From the NCBI GenBank assembly GCA_016234805.1, contig JACRNU010000054.1, forward strand, positions 24,329 through 88,328: a DNA stretch of 64,000 nucleotides, read 5' to 3'. The DNA is from Elusimicrobiota bacterium. GTDB taxonomy: Bacteria; Elusimicrobiota; Elusimicrobia; UBA1565; UBA9628. Below, piece after piece: positions 10,099-57,472 of the stretch; within the stretch, counting starts at the first letter, position 1, and every line of letters begins with the position of its first letter. A model generated the notes under the pieces. That model was not told the DNA's origin, made no database searches, and saw nothing but the letters and a program-made list of their open reading frames with translations. The position numbers were made by a program, and so were the translations under genes.

Positions 10099-11783
10099 AG
10101 CGTCCGTCCCGCGCGGCCTGGCGGCAAAGGACCACCGTCCCCGAAGGCAGCGGGCAGGGGCCCGCAGTCCCCGCAGGGGGCGCTGGACGTCCTCCTTTCG
10201 CCGGAGGGGGCTGGTGGGCCTGTCTGGTCCTGGGAACCGCGGTCGCGTCCGTCTTCAGCGGGGTCCTTTCGAACGGGTTCTTCGACTTCGACGATTACGA
10301 GTGCTTCGTGGACAACCCCATGGTCCACGGCCTGGGCTGGACGCAGCTCAAGTGGATGTTCACGTCCCTGCACCTGACGGCCTATCAGCCGCTGGCCTGG
10401 CTGGCGGGCGCCCTGCTCTGGACGATCGCGGGCCCGCTGCCCGGCCCATTCCATCTGCTGAGCCTCGTCCTGCACATCGCCAACGCGATCCTGCTCTGCG
10501 TCCTGCTGTCCCGGATCCTGGAGCGGGCCGCGCCCTCGACCGAGGTCCGGGAGAGGCTGCTCGCGGCCGGAGCGGCCTCCCTCCTCTGGTCCATCCACCC
10601 CACGAAAGCCGCGGCCGTGGCCTGGGCCACCAAGGTCTCGGACCTGATGGCGGCGTTCTTCTTCCTCTGCGCATGTCTCTCCTACCTGGGGCGCGGTCAA
10701 GGCCGGAGGCCGAGCGCCCCGACCGCCTCCGAGGATGGCGTTGGCTGGTCGGGGCGCGGGCAGGAACAGGGACGGGCGTGGCGCCCCGGCATCCGGGCTT
10801 CGGCCTGGCTGTTCCTGGCCTCGGGTCTGTCGCATTGGACCGGCATCGCCTTTCCGCTGGTCCTGATCCTCCTGGATTTCTATCCGCTCAAGAGGCTCGG
10901 GGCCGATCCCGTGGGATGGTTCAAGGGGCCTTCGGCCAAGGTGTGGTTCGAGAAATGGCCTTTCCTCGCCATCGCCATAGGCCTCGCTGTCATCAACGGC
11001 CATGGCAAGGCTCAAGTCAAGGGCATCGAGCTTCTCTACGGCCTGACCCATCCCATGGAAGCGTCCCTGGCCGCGGCTTTCTATCTCCGAAAGGTCCTGT
11101 TCCCGACGGATCTCGCGGTCCTCTATGCCATCAACGGCCCCGCAAGCTCCGCGGGCCTCAATCCTGGAGCCGCGGCGCTCCTCATCCTCGTCGCGACCCT
11201 CTATGCCGCCTCGGTCTGGCGGTCCGCTCCCCTGGCCCTCGGAGGCTGGCTGTTCTGGCTCGCAGGGCTTCTTCCATCCTTCGCCTCTTCAGCCGAGGGT
11301 ATCATCTACGGACAGGATATCTATGCCTATATACCATCCATGGGCTTGGCGCTCCTGCTCGCCTGGGCCTTGTCGTCTGTCATGGGGTTCGAAGGGCCGG
11401 CCCCCTCCGGGGACCTGCCGCCCTTGCGGCAGGGCCCGCTGTCCCGGATGAAGAGGCTCCTGCTGCTCACCATGGCGCTGGGCTCGACGGCCGCTGCCTC
11501 GGCGATCTTCGTTCCGATGAGCATGCGGCAGACCGAGCTCTGGCGCGAGCCCGGAGCTGTGTGGAGGCAGACCCTTGCCGCGGACCCCGACCTGTGGATC
11601 GCGCACTACAACCTTGCCGCCCTGCTCGTGCGGCAGGGCCGCTGGGACGAGTCCAGGCCGCACTTCCAGGAGGCGCTGCGTCTGAGGCCCGGCGCAGAGG
11701 GATGGAAGGAAGACATCTCGGCCGCGCTTCGCCAAATGCCGTCTTCCTCGCCGGGGCGGAAACCGGGCGTCCCGGCGAAATGA
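10095..11783 (+). CDS. TMTC-like GT-C/TPR membrane protein (paralog 2)
   Basis: Architecture and motifs are shared with 8305-10098 (FDFDDYECFVDNP, WMFTSLHLTAYQPLAW). It carries the 57-bp repeat family near both its 5' and 3' ends, so the true start may be internal or non-ATG. Confidence 0.55.
   Translation: MKRPSRAAWRQRTTVPEGSGQGPAVPAGGAGRPPFAGGGWWACLVLGTAVASVFSGVLSNGFFDFDDYECFVDNPMVHGLGWTQLKWMFTSLHLTAYQPLAWLAGALLWTIAGPLPGPFHLLSLVLHIANAILLCVLLSRILERAAPSTEVRERLLAAGAASLLWSIHPTKAAAVAWATKVSDLMAAFFFLCACLSYLGRGQGRRPSAPTASEDGVGWSGRGQEQGRAWRPGIRASAWLFLASGLSHWTGIAFPLVLILLDFYPLKRLGADPVGWFKGPSAKVWFEKWPFLAIAIGLAVINGHGKAQVKGIELLYGLTHPMEASLAAAFYLRKVLFPTDLAVLYAINGPASSAGLNPGAAALLILVATLYAASVWRSAPLALGGWLFWLAGLLPSFASSAEGIIYGQDIYAYIPSMGLALLLAWALSSVMGFEGPAPSGDLPPLRQGPLSRMKRLLLLTMALGSTAAASAIFVPMSMRQTELWREPGAVWRQTLAADPDLWIAHYNLAALLVRQGRWDESRPHFQEALRLRPGAEGWKEDISAALRQMPSSSPGRKPGVPAK
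10152..10214. repeat. 57-bp structured repeat family, degenerate copy A (inside the 5' end of the TMTC-like gene)
   Basis: GTCCCCGCAGGGGGCGCTGGACGTCCTCCTTTCGCCGGAGGGGGCTGG aligns to the canonical unit CCTGGCGCAAGGGCGCCAGGTCCCCGGAGGGCAGATGTCCTCCGCTCCCGGAGGGGGC. Confidence 0.6.
11395..11443. repeat. 57-bp repeat family, shortened copy B (reverse orientation, inside the 3' end of the TMTC-like gene)
   Basis: The reverse complement reads CCTGCCGCAAGGGCGGCAGGTCCCCGGAGGGGGCC. It is translated in frame as PSGDLPPLRQGP. Confidence 0.65.
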
Positions 11784-11789
11784 TATAAT
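11781..11789 (+). promoter_or_regulatory. Extended -10 element TGATATAAT overlapping the stop of the TMTC-like gene, upstream of the GT9 gene
   Basis: Perfect TGnTATAAT, the second of three identical copies in the window. Confidence 0.4.
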
Positions 11790-11835
11790 CCCCTCCTCCG
11801 CTCCCGCCGCGGATGCCGCGACGGTCGTCGTCGAC

Positions 11836-13365
11836 ATGCCCAATAAGATCCTGGTCATCCGGCTCTCCTCGCTGGGGGATGTGGTGCTCACCGCTCCCGT
11901 GTTCCGCAGCCTCAAGGCGGCTTGGCCGGACTGCTCCATCTCCGTCCTGGTCAAGCCCCAGTTCGCTGGCGTGCTCAAAGGCAATCCGCACCTCAGCGAG
12001 ATCATCCCGTTCCGCGGCCTGAGGGACGCGGTCTCGACCATACGGTCGCGCGGGTTCACCCATCTCCTGGACCTCCACGCTACGACGCGGTCCTTCCTCA
12101 TCCGTTCCATGTGCGGCGTGCCCGAGGTCTCGGTATATAAGAAGGACGCGCTGGCACGGACGCTCTATGTCAGCTTCGGCTTGCGCTCGCCCGTGCTGGA
12201 GAAGCACACCATCGAGCGCTACCTCGAGGCTCTGTCGCCTTGGGGAGTGCGGTCGAGCGACCTCTCCCTCTCGTTCGGGGACTATGGCGAAGCGGGCCCT
12301 GTCGGGGAGACGGGGACCGAGCCAGGGGCGCGCCCGGCCAGCATCCTCGTCATCCAGACCGCTTTCCTCGGGGACTGCCTCCTGACCCTGCCTCTCCTGC
12401 GCGAGCTCAAGGCCCTCTCCCCCTCCTCCCGCGTCACGGTCCTGACCACGGAGCGCACGGAGGAGGTCTTCTCCGGGAGCGGTTGGGTCGACGAGACCAT
12501 CGTGGACCGCAAGCGGGGCGAGCACTCCGGCCTGTTCGGGACCCTGGTCATGGCGCGCAGGCTCCGTTCCAGGGGATTCGACTGCGCCGTGATACCGCAC
12601 CGCTCCTTCCGCAGCGCCTTCCTGGCGTGGCGCTCCGGGATCCGCGAGCGCATCGGCTTCTCCACCAGCGCGGGAAGCTTCCTCCTCACGCGGCAGGTCC
12701 CGTTCGCCTGGCACATGCACGACTTGGAGCGCAATCTCGCGCTCCTGCTGCCCCTGAAGGCCGGATTGAAGCTGCGGCCTGACGAGTCCCGCTACCTCGA
12801 GCCGGATATCGGCGGAGCCGCGGCAGCGCGGCTTCAGGCCGCCGGGATCGGCCCCCTTGACCGCGTTGTGGCCGTGCATCCCGGGTCGACCTGGCCTACC
12901 AAGAAGTGGTTCGAGCATCGTTTCCGCGACCTCTGCGGCCGCCTGGTGAAAGACGGCTTCAAGGTGGTCATCGTGGGCGGCGCGGCTGACAGGGACTTGT
13001 GCGCCAGGCTCGCTTCAGGCTCAGGGTCCGCGGACTTCTCCGGGGGCGCGCTTTCCGAGCTCAAGAGCCTGATGGGCAGGCTCTCCCTCTTCGTGACCAA
13101 TGACTCCGGCCCCATGCACGTTTCCGCCGCGTCCGGGGTGCCCACCCTGGCGATCTTCGGCCCCACCACGCGTGAGTTGGGTTTCTTCCCCTACGGTCCC
13201 GGCCATCGGGTCCTGGAGGCGGACCTCGCCTGCCGCCCCTGCGCCCTGCACGGCGGCAGGTCGTGTCCCGAGGGCCACTTCCTGTGCATGGGCCTCATCA
13301 CCACGGACCTCGCCCACCGCGCCGCCCGCGAGATGCTAGCGGCTAAGGAGCCGCTGTCCCTGTAG
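11836..13365 (+). CDS. Tandem-domain glycosyltransferase family 9 (two ADP-heptose:LPS heptosyltransferase-like modules in one polypeptide)
   Basis: Two GT9 N-terminal signatures are present (ILVIRLSSLGDVVLTAPVFRSLK and ILVIQTAFLGDCLLTLPLLRELK). A single C-terminal donor-binding motif follows (FVTNDSGPMHVSAASGVPTLAIFGPTT). Confidence 0.75.
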   Translation: MPNKILVIRLSSLGDVVLTAPVFRSLKAAWPDCSISVLVKPQFAGVLKGNPHLSEIIPFRGLRDAVSTIRSRGFTHLLDLHATTRSFLIRSMCGVPEVSVYKKDALARTLYVSFGLRSPVLEKHTIERYLEALSPWGVRSSDLSLSFGDYGEAGPVGETGTEPGARPASILVIQTAFLGDCLLTLPLLRELKALSPSSRVTVLTTERTEEVFSGSGWVDETIVDRKRGEHSGLFGTLVMARRLRSRGFDCAVIPHRSFRSAFLAWRSGIRERIGFSTSAGSFLLTRQVPFAWHMHDLERNLALLLPLKAGLKLRPDESRYLEPDIGGAAAARLQAAGIGPLDRVVAVHPGSTWPTKKWFEHRFRDLCGRLVKDGFKVVIVGGAADRDLCARLASGSGSADFSGGALSELKSLMGRLSLFVTNDSGPMHVSAASGVPTLAIFGPTTRELGFFPYGPGHRVLEADLACRPCALHGGRSCPEGHFLCMGLITTDLAHRAAREMLAAKEPLSL

Positions 13366-13374
13366 GCGAGGCCG

Positions 13375-13455
13375 TTCTCCTCCCGCCGGAGTGGGGCTGG
13401 GTGCAAAGGGGTCCCGCCCCTGAAGCCGAGGTAGGCTTCCTCCCTCCGGAGGGTT
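13375..13455. repeat. 57-bp repeat family, degenerate copy C (~1.3 units) in a convergent intergenic region
   Basis: CTCCCGCCGGAGTGGGG then GGTGCAAAGGGGTCCCGCCCCTGAAGCCGAGGTAGGCTTCCTCCCTCCGGAGGG aligns to the canonical unit. Confidence 0.5.
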
Positions 13456-13472
13456 TGGCGGGGCTGTTGCCA

Positions 13473-13514
13473 AGATATCCACAAACCTATCTTAAGATAT
13501 GTTTGTGGATATCT
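13473..13514. terminator. AT-rich perfect palindrome AGATATCCACAAAC-(CTATCTTAAGATAT)-GTTTGTGGATATCT between convergent genes; candidate bidirectional terminator or protein-binding site
   Basis: 14-bp perfect inverted arms with a spacer that is itself palindromic (ATCTTAAGAT). Local GC is far below the window average. Confidence 0.5.
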
Positions 13515-13562
13515 CGGGGGCCCGTGAAAATTTCTGGTGAAGGACTGCCTGCCGCCGCGGGG

Positions 13563-15221: not shown

Positions 15222-15293
15222 GTTTCTCCCTGGTCGAAAAAGCTATGGAGAAGCTACCAAATCGTGACAGTGAAGGATATATCTTCCGGTAAA

Positions 15294-15302: not shown

Positions 15303-15312
15303 CCAAGGGTTG

Positions 15313-22052: not shown

Positions 22053-23072
22053 ATGCCCATGAAGAAGCATCCCGCGGTGCTGACGGCCCGAGAACGCCGC
22101 CGCCTGAAGGGCTATGTCCGGCAGTTCTCCGGCAAGAGGGTCCTGGTGGTCGGGGACCTCATGCTCGATGAGTTCATCCGCGGGGCGGTGCACCGCATCT
22201 CCCCGGAGGCGCCGGTCCCGGTCGTGCAAGTCCGGGCCGAGAGCTACGTCCCGGGCGGGGCGGGCAACGTGGCCCGCAACCTGGCCGCCCTCGGGGCGGG
22301 CGTCGTGGTCGTGGGCGTGGTGGGCGAGGACGCGGCCGCGGAGCGCCTGCGCTCGGATTTCGCGGGCCACGGCATCGACGTGGCCGGCCTGTTGTCGGAC
22401 TCCGGGAGGGTGACCTCCCAGAAGTGCCGGATCATCGCGGAGCACCAGCAAGTCGTCCGGTTCGACCGGGAGACCACGGGCCCGCTGTCCGGCGCCTCGG
22501 AGCGCGAACTCCTGCGCCGCATCCCCGCGGCCGTGGACCGCGCACACGCCGTGGTCCTCTCCGACTACGGCAAGGGCGTTGTGACGCCCGCGGTCGTCAA
22601 AGCCGTCCTCTCCCGGGCCAAAGGCCGGCGATTGCCGGTCACCGTGGACCCCAAGCCGGAGAACTTCAACCTCTACCGCGGCGTCACCTGCCTGACGCCC
22701 AACGTGCACGAGGCTTGGGCCGGGATGCGGCGCCATCCCGAGCCGGGAAGAGGGGCTCTCGACGCGCTGGGACGGAGCATCCTCTCAGGGCTCGGATGCG
22801 CGTCCCTCATCATCACCCGCGGCCCCGAAGGCATGAGCCTCTTCAAGCGGGGCGGGGCCGGAGTCATCCACATCCCCACCGAGGCGCGCGAGGTCTACGA
22901 CGTGACCGGGGCGGGCGATACGGTCATCTCCGTGCTCACCCTGGGCCTGGCCAGCGGAGCCTCCATCGAGGCCGCCGCGGTCGTGGCCAACTGCGCTGCG
23001 GGCATCGTGGTGGGCAAGCTCGGCACCGCCACGGTCTCATCGGAGGAGCTCATCAAGGCCCTGGCCCAATGA
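22053..23072 (+). CDS. hldE: D-glycero-beta-D-manno-heptose-7-phosphate kinase (HldE/RfaE domain I only, PfkB family)
   Basis: Motifs VLVVGDLMLDEFIRGAVHRISPEAPVPVV and DVTGAGDTVISVL. No adenylyltransferase domain is attached. The true start may be the second ATG at 22059. Confidence 0.8.
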   Translation: MPMKKHPAVLTARERRRLKGYVRQFSGKRVLVVGDLMLDEFIRGAVHRISPEAPVPVVQVRAESYVPGGAGNVARNLAALGAGVVVVGVVGEDAAAERLRSDFAGHGIDVAGLLSDSGRVTSQKCRIIAEHQQVVRFDRETTGPLSGASERELLRRIPAAVDRAHAVVLSDYGKGVVTPAVVKAVLSRAKGRRLPVTVDPKPENFNLYRGVTCLTPNVHEAWAGMRRHPEPGRGALDALGRSILSGLGCASLIITRGPEGMSLFKRGGAGVIHIPTEAREVYDVTGAGDTVISVLTLGLASGASIEAAAVVANCAAGIVVGKLGTATVSSEELIKALAQ

Positions 23073-23887
23073 GGAAAAGGGACGCGGTCCAGGTCGGCGG
23101 GACCGCGGTCATCATCCCTGCCCGGTGGGGATCCACGCGCTTCCCCGGCAAGGTCCTCGCCCTTCTCGGAGGCAAGCCCATCGTCCGGTGGTGCCACGAG
23201 GCCGCGGTCGCGTCCCGGATCGGCCCTGTGGCCGTGGCCACGGACGACCTCGAAGTCGTCCGGGCCGTGGAAGCCTTCGGAGGCCGCGCTGTCATGACCC
23301 CGAAAAACCTGGCCTCGGGCACGGACAGGGTCCTTGCGGCCCTCAAGCGGCTGCGGTGGTCCCCCCGCTTCGTGGTCAACCTGCAGGGAGACGAGCCCCT
23401 GATCTCCCCGTCGGGTTTGAGGAGCCTCGATCGCCTCCTGCGCTCCGCGGGCGCCGACGTGGCGACCCTCGTCACCCCCTTGAAGGGCGCGGAACGCCTC
23501 CAGCGGCCCGACGTGGTCAAGGCCGTCCTGGCCAAGGACGGGCGGGCCCTTTACTTCTCCCGTTCCCCTGTCCCGTACCGCCGCCAGCCCCCTCCGGCGA
23601 GAGGAGTACGGCTTTCGCCTTCGGGGACGGCGGTCCCTTGCCGCCAGGAAGAGCCCCGGCGCTGGGAGCACATCGGCATCTACGGGTACAAGGCCGCATC
23701 CCTGCGCCGCTTTGTCTCCCTTCCCCCCTCCCCGCTCGAGCGTGCCGAGTCGCTCGAACAGCTCCGGGCCCTGGAGGATGGGATGAGCATCTACGCCGCG
23801 GTGGTTCCCGCCCGCGGCGTGGCCATCGACACGCCGGCGGACCTGGCGCAAGCAGAACGACTGATACAGAAAAGAAGGAGCCCTTGA
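23069..23887 (+). CDS. kdsB: 3-deoxy-manno-octulosonate cytidylyltransferase (CMP-Kdo synthetase)
   Basis: Motifs [39 protein letters not shown] and HIGIYGY. It carries a 57-bp repeat copy in frame at 23588-23648. Confidence 0.85.
23588..23648. repeat. 57-bp repeat family copy D (reverse orientation), in frame inside kdsB
   Basis: The reverse complement reads CCTGGCGGCAAGGGACCGCCGTCCCCGAAGGCGAAAGCCGTACTCCTCTCGCCGGAGGGGG. It encodes ...[19 protein letters not shown]... in a loop that is enlarged relative to typical KdsB sequences. Confidence 0.75.
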
Positions 23888-23949
23888 TGAAACGACGAAT
23901 CGTCCCCCACGATGCTCGCCTCCCCGCGGGGGAGGCTCGCGGCATATGA
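23887..23949 (+). promoter_or_regulatory. Micro-ORF (20 codons, [20 protein letters not shown]) spanning the CCTCCCCGCGGGGGAGG hairpin; stop/start overlaps on both sides (TGATG with the kdsB stop, ATGA with the pyrG start)
   Basis: Copy 2 of the coupling cassette. It shows both nucleotide-level and peptide-level similarity to 2471-2557. Confidence 0.6.
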
Positions 23950-26504: not shown

Positions 26505-26894
26505 ATGAAATGCATGAATTGCGGGCAGGACAACAAGGACACGGCCAAGGCGTGCAGGAAGTGCGGCCGCGACCTTTCCACTCCGCCGGCGTGGTTCCCG
26601 GACGCGAAGTGGCACATGCGCACACTGGGGATCATCTACGCGTGCCTGGTGGTCCTGTACTTCGGAGTCTCCTTCCTCCTGCGAAGATTGCCCAGGCCCT
26701 ACCACATCCGCGACATCGCGCCCGAGATGACGCCCTGGCTCAAGCGGCCGGGTCTGCCCAAGCACCTGCCGGAGGAGCAGCTCAAAGCTCCGGCGAGTCC
26801 CCCGAAGCCTGTCTCGGAAGCGGGAGCCACTGGCGGCAAGGGACCGCCGTCCCCGAAGGCGCCGGACGTTCTCCTCTCGCCGGAGGGGGAGTGA
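26505..26894 (+). CDS. Zinc-ribbon (CxxC...CxxC) membrane protein; its C-terminal tail is encoded by a 57-bp repeat copy
   Basis: MKCMNCGQDNKDTAKACRKCG followed by one TM segment. The last ~25 aa (...[23 protein letters not shown]) derive from repeat copy E. Confidence 0.5.
   Translation: MKCMNCGQDNKDTAKACRKCGRDLSTPPAWFPDAKWHMRTLGIIYACLVVLYFGVSFLLRRLPRPYHIRDIAPEMTPWLKRPGLPKHLPEEQLKAPASPPKPVSEAGATGGKGPPSPKAPDVLLSPEGE
26828..26890. repeat. 57-bp repeat family copy E
   Basis: CACTGGCGGCAAGGGACCGCCGTCCCCGAAGGCGCCGGACGTTCTCCTCTCGCCGGAGGGGGA, the reverse complement of copy D. Confidence 0.75.
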
Positions 26895-27484
26895 GACGGA
26901 TCCTGGCTCTCGCCGGCCTGGTCGCTCTGGCGGCCTCCTGCAAGGAGGTCAAGCCGGACGCCCACGCGCCGCAGCAGAGCCTCGAGGATTTCACCATGAC
27001 CCGGTCGAAGGACGGGGTCCCGGTCTGGCTGCTCCAGTCTCGCGTCGCCTTTCTCCGCGAGGACTCCAAGAAGGCGCTCCTGTCCGAGCCGCGTCTGGAG
27101 GTCCGGGAGCTCGGCAAGCCCATCCTTAGGGCGCAGGCGCGCAGGGGCACGGCCCACATCGAGAACCACGACGTCCTCCTGTCAGGGGCCGCCAAGCTCT
27201 TCTTTGTGCAGGAGGATTCGACCCTGGAAACCGAAGAGCTCATGTTCGTGCCCCAGACCCGCCAGTTCCGCAGCGACCGCGAGGTCGTGCTGCGGCGGCC
27301 GGGCGCGGTGGTCCGGGGCACGGGCTGCGTGGCCGGCTCGGACCTCTCCGAGGTCAAGATCTTCAATCAGAAGTCCGTCATCCAGCCGGGCGCTTCCGCG
27401 CCCATGCGGAGTGTCGCCCCAGCCGCGGTCCGGACCATCCCTGCCGCTGATTCAAGCCGCGCCAAAGGGGGGTCCGGCGGATGA
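26891..27484 (+). CDS. lptC: LPS export system protein LptC-like
   Basis: GTG start with an N-terminal anchor (VRRILALAGLVALAASC), about 190 aa, predicted beta-jellyroll periplasmic protein. It sits immediately upstream of lptA-lptB. The call rests on position and size. Confidence 0.55.
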   Translation: MRRILALAGLVALAASCKEVKPDAHAPQQSLEDFTMTRSKDGVPVWLLQSRVAFLREDSKKALLSEPRLEVRELGKPILRAQARRGTAHIENHDVLLSGAAKLFFVQEDSTLETEELMFVPQTRQFRSDREVVLRRPGAVVRGTGCVAGSDLSEVKIFNQKSVIQPGASAPMRSVAPAAVRTIPAADSSRAKGGSGG

Positions 27485-29400: not shown

Positions 29401-29477
29401 CTGCTCCCCTTCAGGGGGCCTGGCGCAAGGGCGCCAGGTCCCCGAAGGGCAGGCGTCCTCCGCTCCCGGAGGGGGCC
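29401..29477. repeat. 57-bp repeat family copy F (canonical form) between convergent genes; it encodes the C-terminal tail of the minus-strand metalloprotease
   Basis: CCTGGCGCAAGGGCGCCAGGTCCCCGAAGGGCAGGCGTCCTCCGCTCCCGGAGGGGGCC, preceded by a CCCCTTCAGGGGG mini-hairpin. Confidence 0.8.
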
Positions 29478-31273
29478 ATGCTGCGCCGCTTGAGCAGGAG
29501 GAAGGCGAGCCTGAGGTGCCGGGGAAGGACCGAGCCTGCGAGCGAGCTCATGATGCTGGCTGGGTTCTGGAACTCCACCGAAGCGCGCAGGTCCGGGTCG
29601 TAGCCGTTGCGGTACTCGTCGGCCAGGCCCATGGTGTGGCCGAACTCGTGGGCTGCGGTGGCGTACTGGAGGTCGTGGCCCAGGAGGATGACGTCCGGCC
29701 CGGCCAGGGAGAGCCACTTGTCATTGTCCCGGATGGCCAGGGCTCCCTGGGAGAAAGCGGTCCCAGGGGCGAGCTTGCGGATCTCGATCTCCGTCCTGAA
29801 GGTGTGGGTCTTCTTCTGGAACTCGAAGCTGCCCTGCCAGTACTCCTCGATGGAGGCTTTGACGGACCGGAGCACGGCGTCGTCCTGGATGTCGGTCTCG
29901 AACGAGGCCTTCACCACCCAGCCGCCCTTCTCCGCGGACAGGCGCAAGCCTTTGTTGTCCGGGACCCATACGATGCCGCGGGCCCTGCCCGTGATGGATT
30001 CGGGGTTGAGGAAGCCGTTCACCAGCGAGTAGGACGCGATGCGCTCCACCCCGGTGAAGAGCACGCCCGCCTTGCGCTTGTAATCCTCGAGCACAGCGAT
30101 GAGCTTCTGCGCGGTGAATTCCTTGGCTGAAAGAGAATATCCCTCGATGCGGCGCGAGAACTTGGCGCTGCGCGCAGCGATCTGGTAGCGGGAGAGGTGC
30201 TTCTCCACGAGGAACCGCCACTCCTTGACCATGGCCGCCCAATCAGCCGTCTTGTTGACCAGGGAGACCTCGGTGTCGCGGTCCTGCCCGCGAGATTCCT
30301 TGGGGAGCGGAGGCTTGATCTGCCAGGGGTGCTCGACTTTCTCCTGCGCCTGGCCCGTGGGAGCGCCGGTCTGGGCTGGAGACGGGGCGAGCAGGCTCTG
30401 GACCTTGCCGTCGAGAGTCCGCATGGGCTTGAGATAGGGGTTTTCGCTCAGGGCCTTCACGGTCCCCTTGAGTCGTTCGTTGAGCGCCTGGGCCAGTCGG
30501 CCGCGCTCCATGGCCGGCAGGTCGCTTTCCGCCACGCGGCGCAGACTTCCGATCATGGCGTTGAGCGTCAGAGCCATGGCCTGCCGCTCGTTACGCAGCC
30601 AGGGGAGGACCTCTTCCATGGCTTTCGCGTCCCAAAGGATGAAGGCTTGGAACCCCTGGCTGGTCAGGATGGGATGGGCTCCTGTCACGAACTCGGCTTC
30701 CATCCAGGAGACCTGCTTGCTGTCCAAATCAGTGACAGGCCCGGCAGGAGGCAGGTCTTCCTGGGCTTCGGCCAGGGTCTCCCCGATCAAAGCTTTCTCG
30801 ATCTCCTGTCCGGCCCGGCGGCTTCCGTCCGGGGAGGCCTTGTCATCCCCTGCTGTCTTCAAGGGGGCGGCAATGGTCTCGCTCAACTGAAGGATGCGCG
30901 ATTCAAGGCTGGTTGCGGCTTTCCTTTCAGCCGATGTCTGTGAGGGTCCGGCCGGCGTCAGGACCGGGACCGCGGCGCTGAGAGAGGGGACGACCGAGTC
31001 CTTGATCTCCGGAGCAGGCAGACTGAGCAGCGCGATTGAAACAGGGATGATGCTGCCGGCCGGGGCCGCGAGGCTCAGGGAAAGCTGGTTCTGGAAGGAG
31101 GGCCCTGAGATCGGGCTGACCGGCGCCGCCAAGATCGAGCCCGGGACTGTCCGGATCCGGATGGGAGCGGTCCTGATGGTCTGGCACCAGGATGTGCCGG
31201 TCAGGACCAGGGCCGCGGCAAGGATAGGACTCGGGAACGCCATTGATTGATTATGCTTGCAGGATAAGACCAT
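29411..31273 (-). CDS. Secreted zinc metallopeptidase-like protein (HEXXH)
   Basis: 620 aa with a signal-peptide-like N-terminus and HEFGHTMGLADEY near the C-terminus. The last 19 aa (SGSGGRLPFGDLAPLRQAP) are read from repeat copy F. Confidence 0.5.
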   Translation of the reverse strand: MVLSCKHNQSMAFPSPILAAALVLTGTSWCQTIRTAPIRIRTVPGSILAAPVSPISGPSFQNQLSLSLAAPAGSIIPVSIALLSLPAPEIKDSVVPSLSAAVPVLTPAGPSQTSAERKAATSLESRILQLSETIAAPLKTAGDDKASPDGSRRAGQEIEKALIGETLAEAQEDLPPAGPVTDLDSKQVSWMEAEFVTGAHPILTSQGFQAFILWDAKAMEEVLPWLRNERQAMALTLNAMIGSLRRVAESDLPAMERGRLAQALNERLKGTVKALSENPYLKPMRTLDGKVQSLLAPSPAQTGAPTGQAQEKVEHPWQIKPPLPKESRGQDRDTEVSLVNKTADWAAMVKEWRFLVEKHLSRYQIAARSAKFSRRIEGYSLSAKEFTAQKLIAVLEDYKRKAGVLFTGVERIASYSLVNGFLNPESITGRARGIVWVPDNKGLRLSAEKGGWVVKASFETDIQDDAVLRSVKASIEEYWQGSFEFQKKTHTFRTEIEIRKLAPGTAFSQGALAIRDNDKWLSLAGPDVILLGHDLQYATAAHEFGHTMGLADEYRNGYDPDLRASVEFQNPASIMSSLAGSVLPRHLRLAFLLLKRRSMAPSGSGGRLPFGDLAPLRQAP

Positions 31274-47813: not shown

Positions 47814-47857
47814 TCAGGAAGATTAACAGATAATTTAATTGTTCGCCAGGGGCCTTT

Positions 47858-49399
47858 TTGGTAAAATCTCCCTTCCAACCAACGATGAAGACCCTTTTCC
47901 TCAACCCCCCCTCATTCTCGGGATTCGATGGCGGAGCAGGGTCGAGGTTCCAGGCCCGGCGCGAAGTCCGGTCTTTCTGGTATCCGACCTGGCTGGCCCA
48001 GCCCGCGGCCCTTATCCCGGACTCCAAGCTCGTGGACGCCCCGGCTGACGGCCTGACCGTGGAGGACGCAGCCCGGATGGCGGCAGGCTACGAGCTGTGC
48101 GTCATGCACACCTCCACGCCTTCCTTCGACAACGACGTGAAGGTCGCGGAGCTCCTCAAGCAGCGCTACCCGGGCATCATGGTCGGGTTGGTGGGCGCTC
48201 ACGTGGCGGTCCTGCCCGAGGAGTCCCTCAAGGCCTCGTCCGCGGTGGATTTCGTGGCCCGCGAGGAGTTCGACTATTCCCTGCGCGAGGTGGCCCTGGG
48301 CGAGCCCCTGGACAAGGTCCGGGGCTTAAGCTGGCAGAAAGACGGCCGCATCCGCCACAACCCGGACCGCGAGCTCATCGCGGACATGGACGAGCTTCCG
48401 AGCGTGCTCGATGTCTACAAGCGCGACCTCACCGTCGAGAACTACTACATCGGCTACCTCAAGCACCCCTATCTCTCGCTCTACACGGGCCGCGGGTGCC
48501 CGAGCCGGTGCACCTTCTGCCTCTGGCCGCAGACCGTGGGCGGGCACGTCTACCGCACCCGCTCTCCTGAGAGCGTCATCGGGGAGATGGCTCGGGCCAA
48601 GACCCTCTTCCCGCAGGTCAAGGAGTTCTTTTTCGACGACGACACCTTCACCGCGGACCTCGAGCGCGCGGCCGCCATCGCCCGGGGCCTCGGGCGGCTG
48701 GGGATCATGTGGTCCTGCAACGCCCGGGCGAACGTCCCCTTCGAGTACCTCAAGATCTTCAAGGAAGGCGGGCTGAGGCTCGTGGTCGTGGGCTACGAGT
48801 CGGGCAACCAGGCCATCCTCAACAACATCAAGAAGGGCATCCGCGTGGACATCGCCCGCCGGTTCACCAAGGACTGCCGCAAAGTGGGCGTCGCGGTGCA
48901 CGGGACCTTCATCTTGGGCCTGCCCGGCGAGACCCCTGAGACCATGGATGAGTCCCTGCGCTTCGCCTGCGACCTGGACATGGACACCATCCAGGTCTCC
49001 CTGGCCGCACCCTACCCAGGGACCGAGCTCTACCGCCAGGCCATGAAGAACAAGTGGTTCGACGAGAACTCCCTGGTGCGCAACGACGGCACCCAGGGCT
49101 GCACCCTGCAGTACCCGCACCTTCCTTCCGCGGCCATCACCGCGGGCGTGAAGCGCTTCTACAGCCGGTTCTACGGCAGGCCCAAGCCCATCCTGCGCAT
49201 GCTCGTGAAGATGGCGCTCGACCCCGAGGAGCGGCGCCGCAGGCTCCGCGAGGGCAAGGAATTCCTGAGCTACCTGCGCGGCCGCGACGGGTGCGAGTGC
49301 CTGGCGCAAGGGCGCCAGGTCCCCGGAGGGCAGACGTCCTCCGCTCCCGGAGGGGGCGAGGCTCAAAGACGCGTCGAGAAAGAGGGCGTCGATGCTTGA
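47858..49399 (+). CDS. hpnJ: B12-binding radical SAM protein, HpnJ-like (hopanoid side-chain cyclitol ether formation)
   Basis: MKTLFLNPPSFSGFDGGAGSRFQARREVRSFWYPTWLAQPAA N-terminus. B12-binding and radical SAM core with an unusual CxxxxCxxC spacing (CPSRCTFC). The C-terminal ~30 aa are encoded by 57-bp repeat copy G. Confidence 0.65.
   Translation: MVKSPFQPTMKTLFLNPPSFSGFDGGAGSRFQARREVRSFWYPTWLAQPAALIPDSKLVDAPADGLTVEDAARMAAGYELCVMHTSTPSFDNDVKVAELLKQRYPGIMVGLVGAHVAVLPEESLKASSAVDFVAREEFDYSLREVALGEPLDKVRGLSWQKDGRIRHNPDRELIADMDELPSVLDVYKRDLTVENYYIGYLKHPYLSLYTGRGCPSRCTFCLWPQTVGGHVYRTRSPESVIGEMARAKTLFPQVKEFFFDDDTFTADLERAAAIARGLGRLGIMWSCNARANVPFEYLKIFKEGGLRLVVVGYESGNQAILNNIKKGIRVDIARRFTKDCRKVGVAVHGTFILGLPGETPETMDESLRFACDLDMDTIQVSLAAPYPGTELYRQAMKNKWFDENSLVRNDGTQGCTLQYPHLPSAAITAGVKRFYSRFYGRPKPILRMLVKMALDPEERRRRLREGKEFLSYLRGRDGCECLAQGRQVPGGQTSSAPGGGEAQRRVEKEGVDA
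49300..49357. repeat. 57-bp repeat family copy G (canonical), in frame at the 3' end of hpnJ
   Basis: CCTGGCGCAAGGGCGCCAGGTCCCCGGAGGGCAGACGTCCTCCGCTCCCGGAGGGGGC encodes ...LAQGRQVPGGQTSSAPGGGEA... Confidence 0.8.
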
Positions 49400-50681
49400 G
49401 GCCTTCCTCGCGGACCCGCCCTCGCTGACCGAGCTCATCAAGAGCGTTTTCAGCGTGGCCGCGGGGTTCGCGGGGGTCTTCTCCGCGGGATTCTGCCTCT
49501 CCTCCGCGGTATGCGGGAGCTTCGTTCTGCGGCCCAAGCGCCGCGCCGAGGTCCCTGACGCGGACCTGCCGCCGGTCACGATGCTCAAGCCTCTCAAGGG
49601 CCGCGACCGGGGGCTCTACCAGAACCTGGCGAGCTTCTGCAGCCAGGACTACCCCCGCTTCCAGATCGTCTTTGCGCTCGACGACACGAACGACCCGGCC
49701 GCGGAGGTCATCGAAGAGCTCAAGAAGGACTTCCCCGAGACGGACATGGAGGTCGTGGTCTCCTCCACGCGCATCGGCTGCAACCCCAAGATCAACAACC
49801 TCGCCAACGCCTACCACCGGGTCAAGCACGATACCCTCGTGATCGCGGACTCGGACATCAGGGTGAGGCCGGACTTCCTGCGCGTTGCGGTGCGGCCCCT
49901 GAGGGATCCCCGCGTCGGCATCGTGACCTGCTTCTACAGGGCGTGCGGGGCCAAGGGCGTCTGGGGCATGATGGACGAGCTCGCCATCAACGCGCACTTC
50001 CTCCCTCAAGCCCTGACCGCGGCCTTCATGGGCGTCAAGTTCGCCATGGGCGCGGCCATCGTCCTGCGCCGGTCGGCCTTCGACAAGACCGGCGGGTTCA
50101 AGAACCTGGCGGACCACATCGCGGACGATTTCTTCCTGGGCCGGTCCATCCAGGCCGCGGGCTTCCGGCTGGCTTTCGCCGAGACCGTGGTGGACGTCAT
50201 CCCGGACGTGCACAGCTACGAGGAGCACATCCGGCACCAGATCCGGGAGCACCGGGTCATCCGCCTGTGCAAGCCCTCCGAATACGGGGGCATCCTCCTG
50301 CTCCACGGGTTCTCCCTGCTGACCCTGAGGATGGCTTTCGTGGGCCCCGACGCCCTGGGCGTGGGGCTCCTCGCCCTGCTCTGGGCCGTCAAGGCCGCCT
50401 CGGTGGCCTGGATCCAGGAGCGGCTCCTGGATGGCCGGGTCAACCTGCGCTCCCTGTGGCTCCTGCCGCTCAGCGAGTGGACGGCCTTCGCCTCCTGGAT
50501 CTGCGGCTTCGGGTACAACCGCGTGGTCTGGCGCGGCGTCTTCTACGCCATCCATCCCAACGGCAAGCTCACCCCGCTGACGCCTCCCCTGGCCGCCCGC
50601 GCGGGCGCGGGCGGTCTCCCATCGCCCTGTGCCGGCGGACGCTCGGTCCCGGCCGCCGGCGCGGGGGCGCCGACCGGATGA
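49392..50681 (+). CDS. hpnI: Glycosyltransferase family 2/21 (ceramide-glucosyltransferase-like), HpnI-like
   Basis: Motifs LKPLKGRDRGLYQNLASFCSQDYPRFQIVFALDD...IADSD...RVIRLC, adjacent to the hpnJ-like gene. Confidence 0.65.
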   Translation: MLEAFLADPPSLTELIKSVFSVAAGFAGVFSAGFCLSSAVCGSFVLRPKRRAEVPDADLPPVTMLKPLKGRDRGLYQNLASFCSQDYPRFQIVFALDDTNDPAAEVIEELKKDFPETDMEVVVSSTRIGCNPKINNLANAYHRVKHDTLVIADSDIRVRPDFLRVAVRPLRDPRVGIVTCFYRACGAKGVWGMMDELAINAHFLPQALTAAFMGVKFAMGAAIVLRRSAFDKTGGFKNLADHIADDFFLGRSIQAAGFRLAFAETVVDVIPDVHSYEEHIRHQIREHRVIRLCKPSEYGGILLLHGFSLLTLRMAFVGPDALGVGLLALLWAVKAASVAWIQERLLDGRVNLRSLWLLPLSEWTAFASWICGFGYNRVVWRGVFYAIHPNGKLTPLTPPLAARAGAGGLPSPCAGGRSVPAAGAGAPTG

Positions 50682-51726: not shown

Positions 51727-51733
51727 GCCTTCC

Positions 51734-53164: not shown

Positions 53165-53226
53165 GCTCCTTCGGCGCCAGCGCCTATCTTGATTTTCAGA
53201 TTCGGCTCTGGATAAAGGGTGGATTG

Positions 53227-53270
53227 TTTGTGTGCAACTTGTGAATTCCATATAATGACTGTGAACTTGG
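53227..53270 (+). promoter_or_regulatory. Promoter region of the two-component operon: TTGTGT-17 bp-TATAAT, with direct repeats TGTGCAACTTG / TGTGAACTTG
   Basis: The -35-like and -10 hexamers with 17-bp spacing were read directly. The 18-mer TGTGTGCAACTTGTGAAT recurs (17/18) at 58584-58609, upstream of the pilin gene. Confidence 0.5.
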
Positions 53271-53302
53271 GTACCCGTCGAAGGCGGGCTGGCGAGGAAA
53301 TC

Positions 53303-53995: not shown

Positions 53996-55289
53996 GGCTT
54001 CGGCCGCTTCCAAGACCTTGGAGGCGGCACTAGGCCGGTTCATCCGGCCGTCGGCCGGCTCCGCCCTGGACGAGCGGCGCACCACCTATTTCGCGTTCCA
54101 GGGCCTGCTCATGGCGGTCCTGCTGCTCATCTTCCTCACCCATCGTCCTGACGCGTCCTCCTGGCTTCCCCGATTCGCTTTCCTGATGACCTTCCTGAGC
54201 GGGTCGCTCGTGGCCCTGCGCCTGACCCCTGCTCCACTGCTGGCGACCTGGAGGTTCCAGGTCGGGCTCTTCCTGGGGGACGCGGTCCTGGCCACCGTGG
54301 CCCTGGCCTGGGCCAAGCCCCTCGCTGAGCTCTACCTGATCTTCCTCCTCATCATCTTCGGGGCAGCCCTGACCCGAAGCCTCGGCCAGAGCCTGATCAT
54401 CGCCACGGTGGTTTCCTTCCTCTACCTGGCCGCGGGCTGGAGGCCGAACCGCGGCCTGCCGCACGACGCCGGGTTCTGGGTCCAGTTCATGTTCCTGTGG
54501 GTGCTCTCCGCGCTCCTGGCCGTGCTTTCGCGCGACGTGGCGCGGGCCCAGGCCTTCCGGGAGCGCAAGCTGCGCGACCAGGTCGTGGAGGCTGAGCGCC
54601 TATCGAGCCTGGGCCGCCTCTCCGCCGAGGTGGCCCATCGCATCAAGGGGCCTCTGACCACCATCATGGTCAACGCGGACCTGCTGGCCGCGGAGCTCTC
54701 GGGCTCGAAGAAGGTGGTCGCGGACCTCCGCCAGATCCAGGAATCGGCGCGCCACTGCAAGGAGATCCTCAAGTCCCTGCTGGACCTCGGCCGCATCGAG
54801 GAGATGGACCGCATTCCCATGGACCTGGGCAGGGCCGCTGCCTCGGCCGTGGAGTCCATCGAGGCCCAGGCCCGGAAAAAGGGCGTCCGCCTCCGAACAG
54901 AGGGCCTCGAAGGCGAATTCCCCATGCTGGGGGACCCGGCGCTCCTCCGCGAGGCTGTCTGCGCCGTGCTCCAGAACGCGCTGGAGTCCGCGGCCAAGGG
55001 CGGCCGGGTCGCGCTCGCGCTCAAGCGGCGGCTCGGCGCGCTGGAGTGGGTGGCCATGGCCGCTGGAGGGTGCTATGTCCTGGAGGTTTCGGATGACGGG
55101 CACGGCATCGCTTCCGATATCATGAGCCGCATCTTCCAGCCCTTCTTCACCACCCGCAAGGGGGGCTCCGGCCTCGGCCTCTCCTCTGCCCTGCGCATCC
55201 TGCAGAAGCACGGCGGGAGCATCGAGGTCGAGAGCGACGGCCCGGGCAGGGGAGCGGTCTTCAGCCTGATCCTGCCCCGGCCGACCTAA
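53982..55289 (+). CDS. Membrane sensor histidine kinase
   Basis: About 6 N-terminal TM segments, an H-box LSAEVAHRIKGPLTTI and HATPase_c (GHGIASDIMSRIFQPFFTTRKGGSGLGLS). Confidence 0.8.
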   Translation: MSVFRASAASKTLEAALGRFIRPSAGSALDERRTTYFAFQGLLMAVLLLIFLTHRPDASSWLPRFAFLMTFLSGSLVALRLTPAPLLATWRFQVGLFLGDAVLATVALAWAKPLAELYLIFLLIIFGAALTRSLGQSLIIATVVSFLYLAAGWRPNRGLPHDAGFWVQFMFLWVLSALLAVLSRDVARAQAFRERKLRDQVVEAERLSSLGRLSAEVAHRIKGPLTTIMVNADLLAAELSGSKKVVADLRQIQESARHCKEILKSLLDLGRIEEMDRIPMDLGRAAASAVESIEAQARKKGVRLRTEGLEGEFPMLGDPALLREAVCAVLQNALESAAKGGRVALALKRRLGALEWVAMAAGGCYVLEVSDDGHGIASDIMSRIFQPFFTTRKGGSGLGLSSALRILQKHGGSIEVESDGPGRGAVFSLILPRPT

Positions 55290-55400
55290 CGACCATAGGG
55301 CCGGCCGGGACCGTCGGCCTCCGGCCTGGACCCGGCCCCGGCCGGCCTGACGGCCCCTATGGCCGGCCGGGACGGTCGGCCTCCGGCCTGGACCCCGCCC
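55290..55400. repeat. Tandem ~54-bp direct repeat (2 copies), GC-rich, between convergent genes
   Basis: GGCCGGCCGGGACCGTCGGCCTCCGGCCTGGACCCGGCCCCGGCCGGCCTGACGGCC repeated with 4 mismatches. Confidence 0.7.
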
Positions 55401-56184
55401 CGGCCAGCCTGACCCCGCTCCGGGCCAGGCACTCGCGGACCCGCGGGCTGGTCAGGGCCAGGAACTCGGCGTAGGAATGATGGGTCGAAGTCGGGCCGTG
55501 TTCGGCCTTGGCTTCCGGGTCCGCGGTGGGGTGCAGGTAGATCTCCGTCAACCCGCCTGGAAGGCGGGGGATGAGCCAGAGCAGGTAGTCCTCGGTCATC
55601 ATGCCGGACCGCAGAAGGCCCAGGGTCCGGTCCGGCACGGTGAGCCCGGCTTGGGCGGCCGAGCGTCTCATCCAGGCCCCGAGAGCCCCGAAGACGCAGC
55701 CGAGAGCGAGCGCGGCCGCGGCGCCGCGGCCGCCGAACCCGGCCCTGAGAAGGACCTCCCCCCCGGTCAAGCGCACCCGCGGGATGCCGTGCCGCAGGGC
55801 CGCCCGGACGACCATGGGGAAAACAGTGGGGTGGACGTGCGCGTTGAGGTGGCTGTCGAGGTGCGTGGGCTTGATGCCGAAGGAGAGGCACAGCCGCACC
55901 TGGCTCTCGATCTCGCTTTCGATCCCCCGGCCCCTGTTCAGGAAGGAGGCCAGGCCCCAGGCCGGCGCCGACCCGGAGCAGAGCTCGAGGTGCACCCCGA
56001 CCCCGAGCCCAGGATTGGCGCGTGCGACGCGGACCGCGTCGCGGACCGCGCTCCCGCGGACCATGAGGCTTGCGAATCCGAGGACCCCGTCCCGGTGGGC
56101 CCGCTCGACCGCGTCATTGAGTCCCGGGGAGCCCCCGAAGTCGTCCGCGCTGACGATGAGCGTGGCCGCGCCGGCCTGGCTCAA
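55357..56184 (-). CDS. hpnK: YdjC/ChbG-family carbohydrate deacetylase (HpnK-like)
   Basis: Motifs LIVSADDFGGSPGLNDAVERAHRDGVLGFASLMV and VGVHLEL. It overlaps (ATGA) the pseudopilin-like gene upstream. Confidence 0.55.
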   Translation of the reverse strand: MSQAGAATLIVSADDFGGSPGLNDAVERAHRDGVLGFASLMVRGSAVRDAVRVARANPGLGVGVHLELCSGSAPAWGLASFLNRGRGIESEIESQVRLCLSFGIKPTHLDSHLNAHVHPTVFPMVVRAALRHGIPRVRLTGGEVLLRAGFGGRGAAAALALGCVFGALGAWMRRSAAQAGLTVPDRTLGLLRSGMMTEDYLLWLIPRLPGGLTEIYLHPTADPEAKAEHGPTSTHHSYAEFLALTSPRVRECLARSGVRLAGAGSRPEADRPGRP

Positions 56185-56570: not shown

Positions 56571-56577
56571 GTGGTTC

Positions 56578-57234
56578 TCAATCCGACCCGAAGTACTGCC
56601 TGTTCGACCGGAGGAAGGTGTCGACCTTGAGGCTGACGGGGACCGGGATGGTGGCCGCGGCGCCCGTGGCCGGGCGGGTGCCGCTGCCGACCGCGAAATG
56701 CATCTCGATGCCGTCCCCGCGGTTCCTGAAGATGGGCGGCGACGAGGTGAGGTCCTCGTCGCGATAGTGGAAATTCCTGACCAGCACCGTGGTGTTCCCC
56801 CCGAGGATGCAGCCGCCCCCGTTAGGGATGCTGGCCGGGCAATTGAGGCCCGGTCCGACGACCGCGATGCGCAGAAGGGCGGGCATGCCCCCGCCGATGT
56901 CGGGGCTCCGGCAGTAGTAGAACGCGGTGACGTTCAAGCTCGTGTTGAGGCGGCCCTCACCCAGGCTGGTGAATTGCAGGGGCGAGAAATTGACGCACCC
57001 GCCGAGGCCGTCTCCCGTGGCGCCGTGGGCGGGGACGTTGATGAACGAGGCTTCCTCGATCTCCTGGCTCATCTGCTCAAGGGCCATGATGGTCCATCCG
57101 CTCACCTCCCCCTTGAGGCTCGTGTCCACGTGGCTCCTCAGGAGGGAGGCGAACACGGTCATGAGGGCGACGAGGACCGCGGAGCTCAGGCTCAGGGCAA
57201 GGAGCAGCTCGATGAGGGTGAACCCCTGGCGCAA
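56578..57234 (-). CDS. Minor pseudopilin with a G|FTLIELLLAL prepilin cleavage site; its 5' end and leader lie inside the 57-bp tandem repeat array
   Basis: ...LAPLRQG|FTLIELLLALSLSSAVLVALMTV. There is no ATG. The candidate start is TTG at 57234 (MRQG|FTLIE) or an upstream CTG. The same frame stays open through all four repeat units. Confidence 0.55.
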   Translation of the reverse strand: MRQGFTLIELLLALSLSSAVLVALMTVFASLLRSHVDTSLKGEVSGWTIMALEQMSQEIEEASFINVPAHGATGDGLGGCVNFSPLQFTSLGEGRLNTSLNVTAFYYCRSPDIGGGMPALLRIAVVGPGLNCPASIPNGGGCILGGNTTVLVRNFHYRDEDLTSSPPIFRNRGDGIEMHFAVGSGTRPATGAAATIPVPVSLKVDTFLRSNRQYFGSD

Positions 57235-57472
57235 GGGCGCCAGGTCCCCGGAGGGCAGATGTCCTCCGCTCCCGGAGGGGGCCCGGCGCAAGGGCGCCAG
57301 GTCCCCGGAGGGCAGATGTCCTCCGCTCCCGGAGGGGGCCCGGCGCAAGGGCGCCAGGTCCCCGGAGGGCAGATGTCCTCCGCTCCCGGAGGGGGCCCGG
57401 CGCGGGGGCCCGGCGCAAGGGCGCCAGGTCCCCGGAGGGCAGATGTCCTCCGCTCCCGGAGGGGGCCCGGCG
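57225..57472. repeat. Tandem array of four 57-bp repeat units (canonical family sequence), the fourth with an 11-bp insertion
   Basis: CCTGGCGCAAGGGCGCCAGGTCCCCGGAGGGCAGATGTCCTCCGCTCCCGGAGGGGGC x4. The unit is 19 codons, so every frame repeats (e.g. RRAPSGSGGHLPSGDLAPL on the minus strand). There are no spacers, so this is not a CRISPR array. Confidence 0.85.

Follow-up and report, generated by a model that had tools for sequence, protein, structure and literature searches.

Rickettsia palindromic elements (RPEs) are dispersed palindromic repeats found in frame in many unrelated housekeeping genes, the products of which are predicted to remain functional; they are polymorphic among related genomes, and no dedicated transposase is known for them (PMC10969869; PMC3733652). 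They are about 100–150 bp long, and each family encodes one conserved peptide, read in a single frame (PMC10969869). Repetitive extragenic palindromes (REPs) consist of a 20–40 bp stem-loop with an unpaired GTAG or CGTC, are mostly extragenic and form head-to-head dimers (Di Nocera et al. 2013, PMC3733652). The CGTC REPs, for which there is no associated transposase, have stems of 8–9 bp, A or T in positions 1–2 and a CCA tail, and the intragenic REPs of Opitutus terrae and R. conorii encode 20–30 residues (PMC3733652). Here, we describe a repeat family from a 64-kb stretch of contig JACRNU010000054.1 of an Elusimicrobiota bacterium (hereafter the window), with units of 57 or 60 nt that are mostly intragenic. 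We conclude that it is a new, RPE/REP-like family of lineage-specific, very short non-autonomous mobile DNA cassettes, and we regard it as highly probable that these repeats are mobile at the nucleotide level and were inserted in frame in genes.

Palindromic elements derived from IS200/IS605 carry subterminal hairpins, cause no target duplication and insert on the 3′ side of a fixed sequence of four or five nucleotides. Mycobacterial interspersed repetitive units (MIRUs) lie between genes and have their own small open reading frame (ORF), which overlaps the downstream gene by 4 nt and is coupled to it (PMC12548453). [quoted passage not shown] An earlier reading of the window, referred to below as the original prediction, had proposed a repeat family of about 57 bp at eight or more loci and had named Correia, RUP and BOX elements as its analogues; RPEs and intragenic REPs prove to be closer.

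The repeat unit and its copies in the window

The canonical unit, CCTGGCGCAAGGGCGCCAGG-TCCCCGGAGGGCAGATGTCCTCCGC-TCCCGGAGGGGGC, is found at 29419–29476 and 49300–49357, exact or near-exact single copies that had been placed at 29419–29477 and 49300–49357, and in a head-to-tail array at 57225–57466. The GC content of the window is about 67%, and the 20-mer of the first hairpin (H1) matched it seven times with three mismatches or fewer, against no match in 100 shuffles. A covariance model built from 18 copies and run on the window unfiltered returned eight loci (about 13 units) at 31–78 bits, namely 10143–10216, 11395–11438, 13332–13401, 23582–23652, 26825–26895, 29414–29481, 49295–49362 and the array. 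The next best match scored 15 bits, and this clean gap upholds the predicted number of loci.

Two length classes, of 57 and 60 nt, differ by a 2-nt and a 1-nt indel that are correlated. A shorter, 33/34-nt form (10118–10150; 11401–11435) has lost exactly 24 nt, the stretch that separates the two internal CCCGGAGGG direct repeats, and the unit lengths of 33, 57 and 60 nt are every one divisible by three. The unit opens at its 5′ end with H1, whose stem measures 6–8 bp and varies in sequence and whose loop is AAGG. There follow a first invariant box, GTCCCCGRAGG, a core of 12–20 nt that varies, and a second invariant box, CCGGAGGGGGC, the G-run of which is able to pair with the TCCCC of the first box. 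Across 39 copies from at least eight assemblies, both boxes are near-invariant.

The unit resembles a REP in having a short, GC-rich stem-loop (6–8 bp with a 4-nt loop; H1 spans 20 nt) followed by a conserved unpaired motif: every copy has GTC immediately after H1, which reads CGTC in the majority of 60-nt copies and GGTC in the canonical unit. It is unlike a REP in that an additional 37–40 nt, comprising the two boxes and the core, are conserved beyond the hairpin, the mobile block being 57 or 60 nt; in that copies are mostly intragenic; and in that they stand singly or head to tail. Unlike those of CGTC REPs, the stems consist of G and C only, and there is no CCA tail.

In-frame inserts and empty sites in relatives

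The window was compared with JACRDQ010000039.1 (loci L023, L025 and L028), which is syntenic with most of it at 72–85% DNA identity, and with the partial syntenic relatives L022 and L027 (Ga0376277) and L026 (JACQWX01). Two of the inserts are copies that had been predicted as a diverged pair starting at 23588 and 26828; both are real, and can now be assigned to the 60-nt class with limits of 23588–23647 (minus strand) and 26830–26889 (plus strand). The first (78.3 bits) lies in frame inside kdsB (23069–23887, plus strand), as had been predicted, and adds 20 residues. It faces an exact 20-aa gap in all nine aligned orthologues, including those that are 86% and 81% identical, and an exact 60-nt gap in the DNA of L022 and L023, and periodicity of GC content at third codon positions (GC3) collapses across it. 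In an AlphaFold model of KdsB (mean pLDDT 85), residues 172–183 and 186–192 have pLDDT values below 50 and the fold elsewhere is confident; the model is consistent with a retained fold in which the insert forms a low-confidence loop.

The second copy (77.1 bits) lies in frame in a Zn-ribbon gene (26505–26894), directly before the last codon and stop and immediately upstream of the AGTGA stop/start overlap with lptC. The insertion, CTGGCGGC...GGAGGGGG, is exactly 60 nt long and is not in L022 or L023, the flanks of which align base for base; the protein has 129 aa in the window versus 109 aa in the relatives.

Two canonical 57-nt copies extend other proteins at their C-termini. The copy at 29419–29476 (plus strand, 74 bits) lies between convergent genes and is read antisense as the tail of a 620-aa HExxH protein (29411–31273, minus strand; HEFGH at residue 542). 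The window protein ends in LLLKRRSMAPSGSGGRLPFGDLAPLRQAP (also given as KRRSMAPSGSGGRLPFGDLAPLRQAP) and that of the relative in LLLKRRSLAP, the difference being a 57-nt insertion. The copy at 49300–49357 (plus strand, 75.9 bits) is an in-frame block of 19 residues in the C-terminal tail of HpnJ (47858–49399), 35 nt upstream of the start of the overlapping GT21 gene. An orthologous copy is found in JACRDQ01 only (P0121, L025 11411–11478), and not in JACQWX01 (P0122) or in distant HpnJ proteins. The attribution of the HpnJ, Zn-ribbon and HExxH tails to repeat copies is therefore borne out by comparison with relatives, and shared peptide segments, which would have counted against the original prediction, are missing from the KdsB, Zn-ribbon and HExxH relatives and from the JACQWX01 HpnJ.

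In a TPR/TMTC-like gene (10095–11783), a full copy at 10151–10213 (plus strand, 62.5 bits; H1 is GCGGGC-AGGG-GCCCGC) stands directly before the first transmembrane helix. The original prediction had recognized this copy, at 10152–10214, and had missed the truncated 33-nt copy that precedes it in the N-terminal tail at 10118–10150 (plus strand), which consists of H1 and the GTCCCCGAAGG box. The truncated copy matches the start of the 60-nt consensus at 30 of 33 nt, and none of 2000 random window segments scored as high. The only in-frame start is ATG 10095, after which the gene has 91–93 extra nt versus L027 and L028; the protein has about 30 extra N-terminal residues versus P0242 and P0243, and GC3 periodicity is lost over 10100–10200. 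Further along the gene, an internally deleted 33/34-nt copy at 11401–11435 (minus strand, 31.3 bits; H1 CCTGCCGC/GCGGCAGG plus fused TCCCCGGAGGGGGC) lies in frame in the linker between the membrane and TPR domains. It aligns by blastn over 31 nt at 94% identity, and includes 18 nt (11401–11418) that are extra versus L027. What had been called a degenerate copy at 11395–11443 is real and can be redescribed as a derivative with 24 nt deleted; the suggestion that a pair of copies lies near both ends of the gene is right for the N-terminus, the second copy being at about residue 435 of 562.

An older insert forms the C-terminal tail of a GT9 heptosyltransferase (11836–13365). This degenerate copy, at 13338–13401 (plus strand, 53.1 bits), is common to three genomes (the window, L023 and L027), is degenerate in all of them and has a stop codon in the first box each time; in the window, the TAG at 13363–13365 lies inside a mutated GTCCCCGAAGG box. 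Downstream of the stop, a very degenerate, non-coding second copy at 13402–13461 (plus strand) is marginal, scoring 8.3 bits at 13426–13453; 11 of 2000 random segments align as well to the 60-nt consensus, and the segment is not in L023. The copy that had been predicted at 13375–13455 is, accordingly, better placed at 13338–13401, where the match is good.

Within about 60 kb of shared synteny, eight loci are occupied in the window versus two in JACRDQ01, which suggests a recent burst in the lineage of the window; six loci in the 64-kb window are lineage-specific, versus none in the closest syntenic relative. JACQWX01 has a copy of its own in the GT21 tail that is not in the window. At 50600–50680, the GT21 tail of the window is about 19 residues longer than that of JACRDQ01, and the GC-rich DNA there is faintly element-like (GGTCTCCC...GGCGCGGGGGC), below the model threshold; this extra DNA may represent a copy of great age, at the hotspot where JACQWX01 has its clear copy.

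The pseudopilin array

The array at 57225–57466 (plus strand, 61–72 bits per covariance-model match) adjoins a type II secretion pseudopilin gene (56578–57234, minus strand). The four tandem copies that had been predicted are present, at 57225–57281, 57282–57338, 57339–57395 and 57409–57466, and the tandem is not clean: a 13-nt remnant at 57396–57408, CCGGCGC+GGGGGC, corresponds to the first 7 and last 6 nt of a unit. Since this remnant sits between the third and fourth units, Tandem Repeats Finder reports periods of 57 (100% identity), 57 and 70.

The array had been taken to be the leader region of the pseudopilin. It is indeed placed, antisense, between a remnant of the ancestral leader (PNRKRR) and the G/FTLIE site, and it is out of frame with the ancestral ATG. 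In L025, which has no array, the pseudopilin starts MSPKRRG/FTLVE, with an ATG that overlaps the upstream stop, and the net insertion in the window is 241 nt. As 241 is not a multiple of three, the ORF from ATG 57496 reads the array yet misses FTLIE. A 139-aa ORF at 57077–57496 was considered as an array-encoded pseudopilin leader and was rejected, being out of frame with FTLIE. Judged from the reading frames, a TTG in the hairpin loop of the last unit (57234–57232) would provide a start giving MRQG/FTLIE.

Distribution in other Elusimicrobia

Our census covered the 64-kb window and about 250 kb of related loci. A degenerate pattern (CAAGGG-N5–7-GTCCCCGRAGG-N12–26-CCGGAGGGGG) identified 13 loci in five metagenome-assembled genomes (MAGs), all of them Elusimicrobia, in a collection of species-representative genomes, and matched eight contigs in Joint Genome Institute (JGI) metagenomes; JACRDQ01 is a sixth carrier MAG. 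Model searches of the pattern loci and of the syntenic relatives brought the total to 39 copies. No match to the canonical 30-mer was found by exact search of 185,579 species-representative genomes, and none was returned by plasmid and phage BLAST searches or by a pattern scan of IMG/VR. Rfam reported nothing for the whole window at the gathering threshold, and a permissive scan of the array gave matches at chance level (E >1). The KdsB and TPR proteins of the window are identical to MBI5883066.1 and MBI5883055.1, NCBI MAG proteins labelled Elusimicrobia and encoded on a 103-kb contig.

Given that the family recurs in other Elusimicrobia MAGs and in metagenomes, the copies are not restricted to this contig. 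The array, which is longer than typical short reads and contains the suspicious 13-nt remnant, might raise the suspicion of an artefact of assembly or binning, either a chimeric repeat produced by the assembler or a duplication limited to this contig. However, the family is found in independent assemblies from different projects (NCBI MAGs, third-party annotation assemblies and JGI metagenomes), shared orthologous copies diverge together with their flanks, and single copies sit within unique genes that align well. We regard the artefact as refuted for the entire family.

Frame analysis of 37 loci found 19 with a coding-type contrast between GC3 and GC content at second codon positions in the same frame on both sides, five C-terminal tails and two N-terminal ones. 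The heuristic left 11 of the 37 unclassed, four of which are window loci that are coding by other evidence. Other host proteins include a Pyr_redox_2 oxidoreductase, RibF (within the flavokinase domain), PriA, a histidine kinase (within HATPase_c), BatA/VWA/DUF4159 proteins, a GATase1-like protein and a TrwC relaxase. The last of these, a TrwC-type conjugative relaxase on Ga0073936_10002799 (L016, 3–2720), has two in-frame 57-nt copies, one of them inside the AAA_30 helicase domain; copies borne on a relaxase are a possible route for horizontal spread of the family.

The combination of in-frame inserts with empty orthologous sites, and the 19 of 37 loci that lie inside long ORFs, make the RPEs the closest described behaviour. 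Compared by description, RPEs differ from these 57/60-nt units, which are read in at least four strand and phase combinations and form head-to-tail arrays. The hosts differ as well: free-living groundwater Elusimicrobia of 67% GC here, and an AT-rich obligate intracellular alphaproteobacterium in the case of the RPEs.

Coding phase

Copies are read sense or antisense in the combinations just mentioned and yield different peptides, which argues for a nucleotide element rather than a peptide motif. The canonical unit is open in all six frames, and the six translations are mutually unrelated. Stop-free reading had been put forward as a signature of the family, a claim that does not hold, as units prove equally open in 25% of cases after shuffling, and so do 15% of 57-mers drawn at random from the window. 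What is informative is that the unit lengths are divisible by three.

A module selected at the protein level, such as a peptide motif or low-complexity linker of 19–20 residues, would account for the whole-codon unit lengths and for the presence of most copies in ORFs. It does not fit the use of both strands and of four or more phases, which gives unrelated peptides such as LAQGRQVPGG..., APSGSGGHLP... and PPPARGV.... Moreover, the DNA is far more conserved than any single peptide, and the stretch at 13338–13461 is partly non-coding; we consider this explanation effectively refuted. PARCEL-type coding repeats were set aside as a protein-level domain.

GC-rich and strongly structured inserts in essential genes might also be left untranslated, through ribosome bypass or removal from the mRNA, as for the mitochondrial ‘byp’ GC clusters and T4 gene 60. 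A bypassed element has no need of the well-defined lengths of 33, 57 and 60 nt, all multiples of three; there are no take-off and landing codon pairs; and copies occur on both strands. Such bypass is extremely improbable.

Structure, gene junctions and a possible host function

The minimum-energy RNA fold of the canonical unit consists of three consecutive hairpins (−37.4 kcal/mol; z = −3.1). The original prediction had described three nested hairpins; the number stands for the canonical fold, the hairpins are consecutive rather than nested, and only the first is supported by covariation. According to both RNAalifold and direct pair counting, covariation is limited to H1, where double compensatory changes affect six of seven pairs (62 cells versus 20.4 ± 3.1 in shuffled alignments, a value that none of 500 reached; slid-partner controls gave 19 or fewer). 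The changes are mostly GC-to-CG swaps, and one-sided G-U intermediates are absent from those six pairs, a pattern that fits a DNA hairpin or templated self-correction of a palindrome and is atypical of an RNA helix. Helices other than H1 are uninformative because they are invariant. The 57- and 60-nt classes differ in predicted fold downstream of H1, and a common three-hairpin structure was rejected on these two grounds.

The stability of the canonical RNA fold and the near-invariance of the boxes in 39 copies both favour a cis element maintained by the host, whether a protein-binding site, a hairpin that stabilizes mRNA or couples translation, or a recombination signal; the boxes would then be under selection, and spread would benefit the host. 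At half of the eight loci in the window, a junction with overlapping stop and start is found within 40 nt (10095, 26892, 49392 and the start of the pseudopilin gene), and the 3′ box supplies a GGAGG just 5′ of the lptC GTG start. Nevertheless, sense and antisense copies relative to the host gene are about equally frequent, which speaks against an RNA role tied to one strand; close relatives manage without inserts at the matching sites; old copies decay freely; and H1 alone covaries, without G-U pairs, with the two length classes differing in the fold of their 3′ halves. On balance, a host-maintained element seems distinctly unlikely.

The positions at junctions also recall MIRUs, which share with this family units of about 50–100 nt, high GC content, single or tandem occurrence at operon gene junctions, overlapping stop and start codons, and preserved downstream expression (PMC12548453). 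The Zn-ribbon copy reaches exactly to the GTGA overlap with lptC, but has no ORF of its own and instead lengthens the upstream gene; the pseudopilin array lies at a formerly overlapping start. Unlike MIRUs, copies are also found deep inside genes, as in kdsB, RibF, PriA and the kinase ATPase domain.

Unit ends, target sites and the mode of spread

The ends of the unit, CCTGGCGC... and ...GGAGGGGGC, are not mutual reverse complements, and no terminal inverted repeats were found. Nor did duplications of a set length mark the target sites: in the Zn-ribbon gene, where the junction is exact to the base, at most 1 nt is duplicated. The family is like MITEs in being small and non-autonomous and in making in-frame fusions, and unlike them in measuring 57–60 nt and in lacking both terminal inverted repeats and, at the base-exact junction, a duplication. 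Of the REP- or MITE-like element tolerated in coding sequence that had been proposed, the dispersed in-frame element survives and the MITE label does not. Set against elements derived from IS200/IS605, the unit has a hairpin at its 5′ end and no target duplication, and its 5′ flank shows a weak preference for GG (0.7 bit per position); the flanks of 29 copies are otherwise unconserved. No transposase came to light in the window-specific islands, which hold RlaP, MshEN, HTH antitoxins and pilin-like ORFs.

Several points weigh against the view that these are mobile repeats inserted in frame. Neither a transposase nor any other mobilizing gene was found within the 64-kb window. The 5′ boundary is not always sharp, because the length of the H1 stem varies. 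Both boxes are invariant even where copies are translated in different frames, which could mean selection for a host function and not recent insertion. Read-through translation of the inserts is something we infer from lengths divisible by three and open frames. Since every genome here is a short-read MAG, assembly errors may lie behind both the array's copy number and its 13-nt remnant. Lastly, element ends and flanks share 6–8 nt at two junctions: the 3′ flank in kdsB repeats the first 8 nt of the element (CTGGCGGC), and the 5′ flank in the HExxH tail repeats its last 6–7 nt (GGGGGC). These two matches could mean that insertion took place through microhomology or recombination and not by transposition.

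Spread by recombination, in place of a transposase, could come about through template switching, through excised or circular units that insert at microhomologies, or through gene conversion seeded where the sequence is like the unit junction GGGGGC/CYGGCG. Besides the two flank matches, it is favoured by the native kdsB target (reverse complement CCTGCGGAAGGGCACCGG), which is H1-like; by the 3′ flank of the pseudopilin array, where CCGGCG equals the unit start; and by the frequent GG at the end of the 5′ flank. The head-to-tail arrays, the 13-nt remnant and the 33-nt form indicate that slippage or recombination acts within units. Against it stand the Zn-ribbon junction, where microhomology is 1 nt at most, and the lack of conservation in the flanks otherwise, and identical unit boundaries at unrelated sites are better explained by an enzyme-defined cassette. 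We therefore consider recombination alone unlikely.

Other repeats and islands in the window

The window holds further repeats. A second, unrelated structured family (D10, core GGGGCGCGGTCAAGGCCGGAGGCCGAGCGCCCC...) is present at 10691–10753 and 63816–63891, with partial matches in two other Elusimicrobia MAGs (L006 6480–6511; L013 177–207). Its copy at 10691–10753 is a window-only, in-frame insertion of 63 nt (21 codons) in the TPR/TMTC-like gene and is not in L027, so in-frame insertion may not be limited to a single family in this lineage. A third family consists of long palindromes, AGGTGCCAGGCTTGG...CCAAGCCTGGCACCT, with stems of about 14 bp, at 4916–4970, 5606–5660 and 61659–61713, each exactly at a gene boundary. 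At 55274–55413, a 62-nt tandem repeat (2.3 copies, 88% identity) occupies the convergent junction of histidine-kinase and YdjC genes; in L025 these genes overlap with no spacer, which makes about 107 nt a window-specific insertion.

Between the GT9 and BT1/MFS genes, about 150 nt of AT-rich, window-specific DNA contain a 13-nt inverted repeat, GATATCCACAAAC...GTTTGTGGATATC (13478–13516), that looks like an operator. Hairpins of the form GCCTCCCCGCGGGGGAGGC after yajC (2469–2550), where they are conserved in L028, and after kdsB (23885–23944) look like terminators. Two islands are not in JACRDQ01: one at about 30.8–33.6 kb, with a collagen-trimerization-like ORF and a pilin-like N_methyl ORF, and one at 40.3–43.9 kb, with RlaP, an MshEN-domain protein and helix-turn-helix (HTH)/antitoxin genes and with GC content down to 59–60%.

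A model for the spread of the family

The comparisons show that units are pasted as precise 57- or 60-nt blocks, alone or head to tail and in both orientations, at sites unrelated to one another. As the genome is gene-dense, with neighbouring genes often overlapping, most insertions land in genes. The copies that survive have a length that is a multiple of three and are situated in N- or C-terminal tails, linkers or surface loops, where they add 11–20 residues rich in Gly, Pro, Ser and Arg that are presumably disordered and leave the protein unbroken. Old copies decay and can gain stop codons, and the 33-nt form arises by an in-frame deletion of 24 nt between the internal CCCGGAGGG repeats.

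On the mechanism, a trans-acting enzyme may recognize H1 in the form of a DNA hairpin, probably while the DNA is single-stranded. A plausible candidate is an HUH/Y1 transposase of the IS200/IS605–RAYT (REP-associated tyrosine transposase) type, which inserts without target duplication; RAYT genes accompany REPs of the GTAG class. We advance this specific mechanism tentatively, as it may well prove wrong. Just as speculative is the idea that the units are coding-adapted cassettes, that is, that master copies evolved whole-codon lengths, stop-free sequence on both strands and flexible peptides, and are mobilized via the DNA hairpin by an enzyme so far linked to no repeat family.

In-frame colonization by selfish palindromic repeats is usually deemed a peculiarity of Rickettsia, with a few intragenic REPs elsewhere; the present family belongs to an uncultivated, free-living, high-GC phylum and has a much shorter unit. 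Because its empty sites are base-exact, and because CGTC REPs and RPEs have no known transposase, it offers a good natural system for the study of element movement, and the same sites allow the tolerance of proteins for random insertions of 19–20 residues to be studied. There is also a consequence for the annotation of MAGs: pipelines call insert-bearing proteins normal, and repeat-derived tails and leaders can mislead the assignment of start sites, domain boundaries and orthology. If the idea of coding-adapted cassettes is true, this would be the first RPE-like system outside the Rickettsiales, one in which the cassettes could colonize the protein-coding space of gene-dense Elusimicrobia genomes and would keep supplying proteins with new tails, linkers and leaders, those of essential lipopolysaccharide, hopanoid and secretion genes among them.

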